From: a virus | Length of the DNA: 34,441 nt | Strand: one strand, 5' to 3' | UHGV virus genome: UHGV-0156988 | In this document: positions 6,264 through 9,135 of the stretch, piece by piece | Layout of the letters: each line of letters opens with the position of its first letter | How positions within the stretch are numbered: position 1 is the first letter of the stretch | Made by a program: the position numbers and the translations under genes | The notes under the pieces: generated by a model | The model's database searches: none | The model's input: only the letters and a program-made list of their open reading frames with translations | What the model was told of the DNA's origin: nothing

Positions 6264-6318
6264 TTTCTGGAAAATCGCCTCATATATGAATCAGTAGATG
6301 ATTCAATTTAAAGCAATA

Positions 6319-6381
6319 TTACCCAACAGGTAAATGCACCCCATAGGTAACTATCCTTGATTTTTGTTACCTTATGGGTGA
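6319..6381. promoter_or_regulatory. Operator cluster between divergent repressor and cro-like genes (three sites)
   Basis: TTACC-CAACA-GGTAA 6319-6333 (perfect); GCACC-CCATA-GGTAA 6336-6350; TTACC-TTATG-GGTGA 6367-6381; AT-rich inverted repeat 6384-6405 before cro-like start. Confidence 0.55.
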
Positions 6382-6417
6382 ATATTTATTATCTGAAATA
6401 AATATCAGGCAATAGCT

Positions 6418-6648
6418 ATGAGCGATAACGAACATTTCGATTTCAAAAAGCACTGGCTTGCACTTACTCCGGATGAGCGTGAAGCCTTCGCACAGGAAGC
6501 CGGAACGACGAGTCACTATATCCAGACTCACTTAACAGGTAAGCGCAAAATGCCAGGTAAAGTATTGATGAATGGGCTTTTTAAAGCCTGTAAAACAAGA
6601 CAATGGCTGCGCTCAAAAGCAGAACTGGCATACTTCTTCTACTCATGA
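6418..6648 (+). CDS. Cro/CII-like small HTH regulator
   Basis: 76 aa, first rightward gene after operator cluster; HTH-like segment FAQEAGTTSHYIQTHLTGKR. Confidence 0.55.
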   Translation: MSDNEHFDFKKHWLALTPDEREAFAQEAGTTSHYIQTHLTGKRKMPGKVLMNGLFKACKTRQWLRSKAELAYFFYS

Positions 6649-6670
6649 TATCCAGCTACAACCCTCTGTA

Positions 6671-6692
6671 GACCGCCACCCGGCGGTCTTTT
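6671..6692 (+). terminator. Rho-independent terminator after cro-like gene (tR1-like position)
   Basis: GACCGCC-ACCC-GGCGGTC hairpin followed by TTTT. Confidence 0.6.
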
Positions 6693-6703
6693 CATATCTA
6701 TTC

Positions 6704-6718
6704 GTACCTCAAAGGTAA
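6704..6718. promoter_or_regulatory. Single operator-like site GTACC-N5-GGTAA
   Basis: One-mismatch copy of the TTACC-N5-GGTAA palindrome immediately after the terminator. Confidence 0.4.
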
Positions 6719-6798
6719 TAAAAAACCAAATCTGGTTGATCTTTTTTTTGTGTCAGCACAAAATAACCGTAATCCCAATACTAATAACAGGGCTTACC

Positions 6799-6999
6799 AT
6801 GGAAATCATTACACGTATTGATGCCGCAAAGCGCGGACTTAAACGCTACTACACCGGAAAACAATGTAAGCACGGACATGACAGTGAACGCTGGGTTTAC
6901 AACGGACACTGTGTTGAGTGCACCATGGAATCAAACCGTCGTATCAGGGCAGAGATTAAGCAGATCATGATTAATTCCTCCCCACAACATTCAAGCTGA
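6799..6999 (+). CDS. Hypothetical Cys/His-rich small protein
   Basis: 66 aa from MEIITRID; CKHGH...CVEC suggests zinc binding; sits between cro-like and replication genes (cII-like position). Confidence 0.45.
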   Translation: MEIITRIDAAKRGLKRYYTGKQCKHGHDSERWVYNGHCVECTMESNRRIRAEIKQIMINSSPQHSS

Positions 7000-7014
7000 T
7001 AGCGGAGATTAATC

Positions 7015-7830
7015 ATGAGCAGACATGCAACAGATTGGGCCTGGGAGACAGATCCAGGTAGCTCGTCATTAAAGCTCATACTGCTCTCGATGGCTGACAG
7101 AGCAGATGAATATAACCTCTGCTACCCCAGCATAGAACGCCTCGTTAAAGACACTTGCCTGAATAAAAAAACCGTGCAGGCCGGACTTATATCGCTCATG
7201 AAAATGGGGCTTATTTCAGATACCGGAGAGAGAAAGGGAGCGACGAAAAGAGTGCGGGTTTTCTCTCTTAATATAACCAAAAACGGGAACATTAAAGGCA
7301 ACCGGGAAGGGGGTAATGAACCCGAAAACGGTAATGTTACCGAAAACGGGAATATACCCAAAAACGGGATGTTGAATGATCCCAAAAACGGGATGTTGAA
7401 TGATCCCAAAAACGGGATCCAGAACCAGTCATATAACCAGTCATTTAACCAAGAGAGGGAGAGCAGGACAAAAACCGGGGATTCTGTGCCTCATGACCCC
7501 GGCGCAAACAACGCCGTGATGAATAACTTTGTTCCTCCTGGTGGGCCAGGGCAATTAGGCAAATTTGTCATGCATGAACAATGGCAGCCATCAGATGACT
7601 TTCTTCGGAAAAGCTCATTGCAGGGGATCTACCTGGACAGTCTGCCAACGGCACAGGAACTTGCAGAGTTCAGAATTTACTGGATGGCTGAGGGTAAGGC
7701 ATACCATCAGGCACAGTGGGAGCAGAAGCTGGCAAGGCGGCTGCAGATTAGCAGACAGAAGCAATCAACATTACCTGATAACAACGTTCCGCACTGGAAC
7801 AGCCCTGAAGCGTGGGAGGATTTCTTGTGA
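7015..7830 (+). CDS. Replication initiator protein, lambda O-like
   Basis: 271 aa; N-terminal HTH-like replication-protein region; internal iteron repeats; followed by overlapping P-like gene. Confidence 0.75.
   Translation: MSRHATDWAWETDPGSSSLKLILLSMADRADEYNLCYPSIERLVKDTCLNKKTVQAGLISLMKMGLISDTGERKGATKRVRVFSLNITKNGNIKGNREGGNEPENGNVTENGNIPKNGMLNDPKNGMLNDPKNGIQNQSYNQSFNQERESRTKTGDSVPHDPGANNAVMNNFVPPGGPGQLGKFVMHEQWQPSDDFLRKSSLQGIYLDSLPTAQELAEFRIYWMAEGKAYHQAQWEQKLARRLQISRQKQSTLPDNNVPHWNSPEAWEDFL
7277..7444 (+). repeat. Iteron-like direct repeats inside initiator gene (candidate origin of replication)
   Basis: Six copies of CC(C/G)(A)AAAACGG(G/T)A(A/T) beginning at 7277, 7322, 7340, 7357, 7381, 7405, then tandem AACCAGTCAT repeats at 7422-7444; encode the PKNG(M) repeats. 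Confidence 0.6.
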
Positions 7831-8612
7831 ACAACGTTTTTACCGCGATACAAAACCGTGACGGAGAAGCCCTTTCTCGCATGTCAGGTTATGAGCATCA
7901 GTACACCAACAATGATAACGTGGTGAACATGTCAGCAGAGAGGCTTGTTGATGCCCTTTTCAAACAGCTGAAACAACTGTTTCCGGCGGCAGTGGTAACC
8001 AACCTGAAGACGCCAGAGCAGGAAGTTGCTGCAAAACAGCAGTGGATTGCTGCGTTTGCCGAAGGGGGGATCCGAACCCGTGAACAGGTTTCTGCTGGTA
8101 TGCGCCACGCCCGCGCCAGTGAATCTCCGTTCTGGCCGTCGCCTGGGCAATTCATCAAGTGGTGTAAAGACAGCAAGATGGTTCTTGGCGTCACCATTGA
8201 CGATGTGATGGCGGAGTTTAACCGGTACAGCAAGGAAAAAAGTTTATATCCTGGTGGTCCCGAAAGATTCCCGTGGCGACATCCGGTTATGTACTGGGTC
8301 GTATGTGATACCCGCCGTGCAATGTATCAGCGCCAGCTTAGCGAGATTGAGGTTGAGAAACACGCGCGCAGGCTGCTCGATGATTGGGCGAAAAAGGTGG
8401 CTTCCGGACAGCAGATACCCGATCCGGTGATCAGCATACAGGCAAAGCCAGAACCCATGAGTACACCTCCGGACACAGGGAGAGACGTTTACCATCCACC
8501 AGGGCGAAGTTTCGGGTGCATGCCTAACGCCGCCACCCTTGGTGGAATAACACCGGCGCAGTGGCTGATGGAGGAATACAGGCGAGGAAAGGCGGCAGGA
8601 TTTATCAAGTAA
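7827..8612 (+). CDS. Replication protein P-like helicase loader
   Basis: Colinear with lambda P as recalled (FPA...QWIAAF...GMR.AR...PF.PSPGQF..WC); GTG 7827 with SD GGGAGGA, overlapping O-like stop; ORF-track start 7812 rejected. Confidence 0.8.
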   Translation: MNNVFTAIQNRDGEALSRMSGYEHQYTNNDNVVNMSAERLVDALFKQLKQLFPAAVVTNLKTPEQEVAAKQQWIAAFAEGGIRTREQVSAGMRHARASESPFWPSPGQFIKWCKDSKMVLGVTIDDVMAEFNRYSKEKSLYPGGPERFPWRHPVMYWVVCDTRRAMYQRQLSEIEVEKHARRLLDDWAKKVASGQQIPDPVISIQAKPEPMSTPPDTGRDVYHPPGRSFGCMPNAATLGGITPAQWLMEEYRRGKAAGFIK

Positions 8613-8617
8613 TACCA

Positions 8618-8637
8618 GCGCGATAGCGCATTTTTTT
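8618..8637 (+). terminator. Weak terminator-like hairpin after P-like gene
   Basis: GCGC-GATA-GCGC followed by T7; stem only 4 bp. Confidence 0.35.
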
Positions 8638-8649
8638 ACGCCTCGACAA

Positions 8650-8726
8650 TTACCTGTTAGGTAATAAAATATTCTAAAATCTATTGATTTCGTGTCTTAT
8701 GTGGTTTTTAATTACCTCAGAGGTAA
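8650..8726 (+). promoter_or_regulatory. Promoter region bracketed by two perfect TTACC-N5-GGTAA sites
   Basis: Sites 8650-8664 and 8712-8726, centres 62 bp apart; TTGATT at 8684-8689 between them; downstream site overlaps the RBS of the 8730 gene. Confidence 0.5.
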
Positions 8727-9074: not shown

Positions 9075-9135
9075 ATCGACGATCTTTTTAGTTATCAATG
9101 TAATCAATAAGTTATGTGGATAAGCGAGGGTAAAG

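Follow-up and report, generated by a model that had tools for sequence, protein, structure and literature searches.

Are the repeats in the middle of a phage replication gene there for the protein or for the DNA, and do they mark the place where replication begins? This question is raised by the virus genome UHGV-0156988, a stretch of 34,441 nucleotides that was analysed whole and is referred to here as the window. The window is a phiV10-like Escherichia coli podophage, and its positions 6700-8700 are about 98% identical to the Escherichia phages vB_EcoP_PAS61, phiv142-3 and phiV10 of the genus Uetakevirus. At this locus a predicted replication initiator gene is followed by a gene for a helicase loader; both are annotated in the phiV10 RefSeq record, but that record holds no origin or repeat feature there. 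A first-pass annotation of the window had proposed a lambda-like origin inside the initiator gene. The present analysis agrees with this proposal and, at a probability of roughly 80%, reads positions 7274-7457 as a vegetative replication origin of the ori-lambda type, located where the initiator gene encodes a linker. The reading draws on the layout of the locus, on the homologues and the three reading frames in which their repeats are read, on the linkage of the repeats to one protein domain, and on the natural hybrid phage GF-2.

The pattern CCSAAAACGGKA (CC[AG]AAAACGG[GT]A), with at most one mismatch, matches the window six times and no more, each time on the + strand, starting at 7277, 7322, 7340, 7358, 7382 and 7406 and spanning 7277-7417. 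Chance would give 0.49 such sites, and none of 100 dinucleotide shuffles reached six, which bears out the six direct repeats first noticed. The start-to-start spacings are 45, 18, 18, 24 and 24 bp, as had been stated except for the third, which is 18 and not 17. Tandem Repeats Finder (TRF) divides the same region into three arrays: one of 18-bp units at 7312-7367; a perfect one of 24-bp units at 7357-7418, which scores 124, more than any other array in the window; and one of the 12-bp unit AACCAGTCATAT, in 2.4 copies, at 7423-7451. The last of these is the run of tandem AACCAGTCAT repeats that had been seen to follow the iterons, and it belongs to an element of GAAYC units treated below. The repeat had been given as about 13 bp; that pattern is present, and a 16-bp unit with dyad symmetry describes the whole repeat better, for example ATCCC-AAAAAC-GGGAT at 7379-7394 and 7403-7418 (Table 1). 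All six repeats share one frame of the open reading frame (ORF) 7015-7830 and lie at codons 87-135, in a linker of about residues 88-150 between the two recognisable domains of the protein. Three of them encode PKNG, the peptide named at first, and the others encode TKNG, PENG and TENG. The two best matches to the consensus, iterons 5 and 6, are nearest to the 12-nt units.

Table 1. Features of the candidate origin and the genes around it, with positions in the window; bits are scores of the position weight matrix (PWM) described in the text.
Feature	Position	Strand	Basis
Terminator-like hairpin separating the replication genes from the cro-like gene	6670..6699	+	phiV10 record: putative rho-independent terminator
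Replication initiator gene, 271 aa	7015..7830	+	ORF list, Pfam, PHROGs, PDB profile matches
Iteron 1, TAACCAAAAACGGGAA	7274..7289	+	14.8 bits
Iteron 2, AACCCGAAAACGGTAA	7319..7334	+	14.8 bits
Iteron 3, TTACCGAAAACGGGAA	7337..7352	+	14.5 bits
Iteron 4, TACCCAAAAACGGGAT	7355..7370	+	17.5 bits
Iteron 5, ATCCCAAAAACGGGAT	7379..7394	+	21.0 bits; 5-bp inverted arms ATCCC/GGGAT
Iteron 6, ATCCCAAAAACGGGAT	7403..7418	+	21.0 bits; with flanks GATCCC/GGGATC
Three 12-nt units, GAACCAGTCATA / TAACCAGTCATT / TAACCAAGAGAG	7422..7457	+	TRF array, stability, family conservation, GF-2/lambda alignment
Lambda-P-family helicase-loader gene	7827..8612	+	PF06992 Phage_lambda_P, E=2.2e-56; phrog_109 'P-like helicase loader', E=1e-92; phiV10 annotation

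Searches with the PWM and for tandem repeats found no second iteron-like cluster anywhere in the 34-kb window. Two isolated PWM matches of about 10-11 bits occur elsewhere in it, and they are accounted for because shuffles of the window give about three such matches per 34 kb. A possible seventh iteron at about 7466-7480 (ACAAAAACCGGGGAT) was not counted, as it scores below 3 bits in the window and 4 bits in phiV10. Terminator-like hairpins, each followed by TTTTT, also occur on the minus strand at 7365-7384 and 7389-7408, where the right arm of an iteron pairs with the left arm of its successor. These hairpins are probably a by-product of the dyads, and they could serve as a block to antisense transcription.

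Relatives of the gene were gathered because the single-frame copies of the window cannot separate a function of the DNA from a repeat of the peptide. The proteins of close relatives, of 279-311 residues against 271 here, are near-identical outside the repeat region and differ only in the number of repeat units, so that overall identities of 86-97% are owing to length differences. Among 79 near-identical genes, including that of the window and scored with the strict pattern, iteron copies range from four to nine with a mode of six, and the arrangement 45, 18, 18, 24, 24 is the most frequent one (54 of 79). The records KP869107.1 and KP869108.1, of O157 typing phages 9 and 10, break or end in the iteron array, and the 'dnaT' coding sequence of typing phage 9 is cut short at 474 nt. 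An apparent recombination junction at about 7299-7315 in these two phages was discarded as an assembly artefact, the records being partial or ending in the repeats.

Searching further with residues 1-87 in tblastn gave homologues with identities of 30-58%, carried by phages of Edwardsiella, Vibrio, Acinetobacter, Pseudomonas and other hosts. In each of the first four distant homologues, GF-2, Her, Acb75 and PPompW, repeats of this kind directly follow the N-domain. With 80 loci from a scan of one genome per species, these four make up a set of 84 diverged N-domain loci; the scanned loci belong to Gamma- and Betaproteobacteria, Desulfovibrio and one alphaproteobacterium, and the genera of the set include Vibrio, Acinetobacter, Providencia and Aromatoleum. 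A PWM that was seeded with the six sites of the window alone converges on GTCCCAAAAACGGGAC over the 84 loci. The motif of the family is a 16-bp dyad, (G/A)TCCCAAAAACGGGA(C/T), clustered just after the N-domain, and its positions 4-5 (CC) and 12-13 (GG) are about 99% conserved. At a threshold of 10 bits, the linker zones hold 354 matches in 37.6 kb (9.4/kb), against 24 in 231.6 kb outside them (0.10/kb), and the coding strand carries 337 of the 354. At least one match is present in 79 of the 84 loci, and at least three in 76.

It is the reading frame that decides the matter: 217 sites are read in frame 0, 48 in frame 1 and 72 in frame 2, and 59 of the 84 loci use at least two frames. The three frames give the peptides PKNG, xQKR[ND] and VPKTE. 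Three Vibrio salinus sites with a 17-bp spacing (GTCCCAAAAACGGAAT, ATTCCAAAAACGGAAC, ATCCCAAAAACGGACT) encode PKNGI, IPKTE and SQKRT, and in Aromatoleum sites with the common core GTMCCGAAAACGG encode TENGT, SRKRN and VPKTx. Because the motif is read in all three frames, the conserved entity is the DNA, with the PKNG peptide repeats as a by-product; selection acts on the iterons and not on the peptide. The locus offers a clear case of selection at the DNA level that can be mistaken for a peptide repeat.

The symmetry of the motif is also a property of the family. Counted about an axis between motif positions 8 and 9, complementary cells number 1437; moving the axis by one position to either side leaves 713 or 696. 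The arms vary together (ATCCC/GGGAT, GTCCC/GGGAC, GTACCG/CGGTAC), as expected of a site that would be bound by a dimer with drifting specificity. Spacings across the family peak at 17-18 and 24 bp. The last iterons are 24 bp apart in the individually inspected loci, and the 24-bp phasing is therefore a family trait; the early remark that the phasing of the last repeats deserved attention was well placed, as the iterons closest to the presumed unwinding site show this phasing across the family.

Just after the last iteron, a second element is conserved. Units of the form GAAYCNNYCAnn are found within 60 nt past the last iteron in nearly all loci, with three units in 54 of 74; they are spaced by 12 nt in 55 cases and by 13 nt in 48, reach a density of 44/kb against 1.9/kb elsewhere, and are read in two frames in 63 loci. 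As a set of three, they occur in about three quarters of the large, Proteobacteria-wide family, whatever the C-terminal domain or loader. The A/T content peaks 20-50 nt past the last iteron, at 71% against 56% (74 loci), or at 65% against 52% when the mainly-Acinetobacter C-terminal cluster is left out. In the window, positions 7421-7460 have 57% A+T, compared with a mean of 50%, the 30-bp segments that begin at 7421 and at 7431 fall in the lowest 4% of the window for duplex stability, and A greatly exceeds T over 7300-7499. Among near-identical E. coli prophages the 12-nt unit is present in two or three copies, and phiV10 has one more than the window. The three units at 7422-7457 are a candidate DNA-unwinding or helicase-entry element, located at the position of the AT-rich tract of lambda. 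It is a more tentative idea, and one we would not yet bet on, that the 12/13-nt units are recognised by their sequence as the site of unwinding or helicase entry, much like the 13-mers of oriC or of RK2 oriV. If it were true, these lambda-like origins would melt at a defined repeat, bound by the N-domain or by a host factor, and not at a generic AT-rich tract; the winged helix, the iterons and the 12/13-mers would then form a compact, portable origin module that plugs into many loaders. This conserved element is the most interesting loose end of the locus.

Taken over the 84 loci, a family can be defined by an N-domain homologous to residues 1-87 of the initiator, at least three of the dyad 16-mers within about 350 nt, and then the GAAYC 12/13-mers. 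The window fits this HTH_36-type initiator family with CCCAAAAACGGG iterons, having six iterons of 14.5-21 bits and three 12-nt units. By these sequence features, a large family of prophages shares the layout, and the iterons, the N-domain and the 12/13-mers make it recognisable.

Within this family the iterons go with the N-domain. The N-domain is found fused to no fewer than 16 unrelated C-terminal regions and retains its iterons in these fusions. Conversely, the initiators of Tyrion, TL-2011b and epsilon15, which have a DnaT C-domain and another N-domain, lack such iterons, and the genes of Tyrion and TL-2011b hold different repeats instead. The iteron sequence thus tracks the DNA-binding N-domain; it tracks neither the C-domain nor the loader. 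A P-family gene lies downstream in all eight loci of the DnaT-C cluster, the window included; outside that sample, epsilon15 has a different and shorter DnaT-domain initiator with neither a P gene nor such iterons. In TL-2011b the initiator gene carries GTAACGCTGGCAGCGTTACAAAAGGAGT twice, 209 bp apart, at locus positions 1939-1966 and 2148-2175. The HTH_36 'O' protein of Stx2a_F403, at 29% identity, is encoded with different repeats, GGGGTGGGGCAGGAGCTGCCC three times, at locus positions 1790-1855. These repeats in the TL-2011b and Stx2a phage genes are candidate origins of their own phages.

A natural hybrid, Edwardsiella phage GF-2, connects the family to lambda. It combines an HTH_36 N-domain and CCCAAAATTGGG iterons of this family with the right ori arm of lambda (CGTCAGAGAATTCTGGCGAATCCTCTGAC, CGTCCGAGAATTCTGACGAATCCTCAGAC), a lambda-O C-terminal domain and a P gene. 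When GF-2 locus positions 2001-2843 are aligned with lambda locus positions 520-760, the N-domain/iteron module occupies the exact position of the lambda iterons and AT-rich tract.

The initiator itself is a composite protein. Pfam places a winged-helix HTH_36 domain (PF13730) at residues 18-67 (E=1.8e-10) and a DnaT domain (PF17948) at residues 184-252 (E=1.1e-15), and PHROGs assigns the protein to phrog_1032, 'replication initiation protein' (E=1e-108). Its C-terminal 85-90 residues match the E. coli DnaT C-domain structures 4OU6, 6AEP and 9ZBT (E about 1e-20), while a PDB profile search with the N-domain gave marginal winged-helix matches only. The protein falls below the cut-off of the NCBIfam DnaT equivalog NF002770, with 85 against 201 bits, and the match covers residues 181-264 on profile positions 86-169. 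Databases name it 'primosomal protein I/DnaT' because the C-terminal 85 residues or so are DnaT-like. The likeness to E. coli DnaT is confined to this C-domain, and the N-terminal half differs, being predicted to form an origin-binding winged helix; on domain content the protein is not DnaT, and the name misleads for a predicted origin-binding initiator.

It had also been called O-like, and here the outcome is mixed. The N-domains of lambda O and of the initiator both match phrog_678, phrog_345 and phrog_270 at overlapping profile positions, which favours the label. Pfam, however, finds HTH_36 and DnaT in the initiator and no PF04492 Phage_rep_O, which lambda O itself gives at E=6e-36, and at the C-terminus there is a DnaT-like domain and no P-binding domain of the lambda-O type. 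The next gene truly belongs to the lambda-P family (PF06992).

Comparison with the ori regions of lambda-like phages had been suggested as a check, and the iterons resemble the annotated lambda iterons in sequence and spacing. The annotated ori-lambda lies in the middle of gene O and has four iterons, ATCCCTCAAAACGAGGGA, at 20, 24 and 23 bp, with an A-rich tract after them, an architecture of iterons and AT-rich tract that is well described (PMC7466680). As in the window, the repeats are direct, have dyad symmetry and a central A-tract (ATCCCTCAAAACGAGGGA in lambda, ATCCCAAAAACGGGAT here), are spaced by about 20-24 bp, and lie in the middle of the initiator gene between a DNA-binding N-part and a loader-binding C-part (PMC7466680). 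Additionally, both loci have an A-rich, strand-asymmetric stretch on the promoter-distal side and a P-family loader gene directly downstream. The differences are also clear. The N-domain here is HTH_36 and not Phage_rep_O, and the C-domain is DnaT-like; the iterons are 16 bp in six copies, all in one frame, unlike the 18-19 bp iterons of lambda, with which they share the ends and the A-tract; and three 12-nt units of moderate A+T stand in place of the long A/T tract of lambda.

Given this anatomy, a mechanism can be proposed. Dimers of the N-terminal winged-helix domain would bind the six dyad-symmetric, A-tract-containing 16-bp iterons, and the bound array would form a bent complex resembling the 'O-some'. 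This complex would destabilise the adjoining A-rich, low-stability stretch with the three 12-nt units at 7422-7457. The DnaT-like C-domain would then recruit the P-like loader and the host DnaB, possibly while holding the exposed single strand. Binding, unwinding, loader recruitment and origin activity of 7274-7457 are what we infer from the sequence; the anatomy, the statistical significance, the DNA-level conservation across the family and the linkage to the N-domain are observed.

Other replicons offer precedents of varying closeness. Stx phages have six iterons and lambda four (PMC7466680), and 933W and P27 share with the window both this number and a copy number that varies among relatives (PMC7466680). 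In these two phages the iterons nearest the AT-rich side bind O best, a gradient paralleled here by consensus scores that rise from 14.8 to 21 bits (PMC7466680). They differ in having true lambda-O proteins and lambda-like iterons that were tested by experiment, where the present iterons are known from sequence. Gene 18 of Salmonella phage L holds six inexact TGTCCAACGGA repeats and then a very AT-rich stretch, annotated as rep_origin (PMC8022706); like the window, gene 18 of L and of P22 offers an origin predicted from iterons in an O-like gene (PMC8022706). Phage L differs in having another initiator family, with no HTH_36 match and no BLASTP similarity, other iterons, and a DnaB-type helicase partner instead of P. 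A link to the L origin (TGTCCAACGGA) was dropped on account of this unrelated initiator family, and L is kept as a precedent only. In iteron plasmid origins such as RK2 oriV, and in oriC, 13-mers form an unwinding element that is bound single-stranded by the initiator (PMC4081077). The window has in common with them an iteron array beside short tandem 12/13-nt repeats; it differs in that the initiators are unrelated, and its 12/13-mers are not strongly AT-rich and have a presumed function.

Several explanations compete with an origin. One regards the repeats as a slippage-prone, low-complexity coding linker of PKNG type, with no function at the DNA level. It would suit the window by itself, where all six copies are in frame and encode xKNG or xENG, and it would suit the near-identical prophages, among which copy number shifts by whole 18- or 24-bp units; the linker is also the lowest-confidence part of a poor structure model. 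However, the same motif in two or three frames at 59 of 84 loci yields unrelated peptides (PKNG, SQKRN, VPKTE), the CC/GG positions stay almost invariant, the dyad is kept while the encoded residue changes from N to I to F, and the motif is 90-fold denser than in flanking DNA. The three-frame analysis leads us to reject the peptide explanation, which is scarcely credible; the linker tolerates indels, and the PKNG(MLND) peptide repeats arise in it as a side effect, where the coding sequence runs through the iterons. A recombination junction, used mainly for swapping the N- and C-terminal modules of initiators between phages, would account for the one N-domain and repeat block found with at least 16 C-terminal regions and for the GF-2 junction with lambda sequence just after the repeat block. 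It leaves unexplained why the units are dyad-symmetric, keep fixed spacings of 17/18/24 bp, favour one strand and form multi-copy arrays, and where origin DNA is conserved an exchange of modules is to be expected as a by-product, as in lambdoid O genes; we consider a junction highly unlikely as the main role. Plasmid iteron-binding initiators commonly autoregulate, and the repeats might accordingly be initiator-binding sites that serve mainly as an autoregulatory device or a transcriptional roadblock setting the dosage of initiator and P, with the firing origin elsewhere. The terminator-like hairpins that adjacent iteron arms form on the minus strand (7365-7408) and the modest AT-rich element of the window would agree with this. 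The 34-kb window offers no other iteron-like cluster in which to place that origin, and the conserved three-unit element, the A-rich tract and the positional equivalence with GF-2 and lambda fit an origin. This explanation is unlikely, and the two roles are not mutually exclusive.

Some observations weigh against an origin of the proposed kind, or against the certainty with which it can be drawn. With all six iterons of the window in one frame, the DNA-level argument comes from the relatives. The linker zones in which PWM matches were counted had also served to refine the PWM, and the 84 loci are not phylogenetically independent, 38 of them being in one C-terminal cluster, mainly from Acinetobacter. 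The candidate unwinding element, at only 57% A+T and about the 4th percentile of stability, is far less marked than those of lambda and phage L. AlphaFold2 on a near-identical alignment gave a mean predicted local distance difference test (pLDDT) score of 36, an unusable model. Direct hhalign comparison of the initiator N-domain with that of lambda O is weak, at a probability of 12%, and homology between the two is therefore plausible but remote, the PHROG cross-matches being the sole evidence for it.

Origins within initiator genes are already well known, and the present one conceptually extends the lambda paradigm and does not challenge it. Inferring origins from iterons in O-like genes is likewise established practice, as in phage L (PMC8022706) and the Stx phages (PMC7466680). 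A literature search found no description of this iteron family, the original epsilon15 and phiV10 genome papers being outside its coverage, and the vB_EcoP_ZX5 paper mentions no origin. The reading gives phiV10-type phages, which include reporter and typing phages of E. coli O157, a concrete and testable candidate origin. Additionally, it defines a widespread module of a winged-helix domain, 16-bp dyad iterons and three 12/13-mers that can be recognised by sequence in prophages of many Proteobacteria, which is of use for annotation, for designing replicons derived from phages and for studying how replication modules are exchanged.

The surroundings of the locus hold a few further features. The hairpin at 6670-6699 is context for rightward transcription into the candidate origin and lies outside the origin itself. 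Rfam gave no match at 6300-8700. The search for DnaA boxes returned one perfect box in the window, TTATCCACA at 9115-9123 on the minus strand, about 1.7 kb downstream; with 2.9 expected, this is chance level. The GTG start of the loader gene overlaps the stop codon of the initiator (GTGA). Just 5' of the initiator gene, a 66-residue ORF at 6799-6999 on the + strand is a homologue of phiV10p42 and has a Cys/His pattern, CKHGH...CVEC, without a Pfam match.

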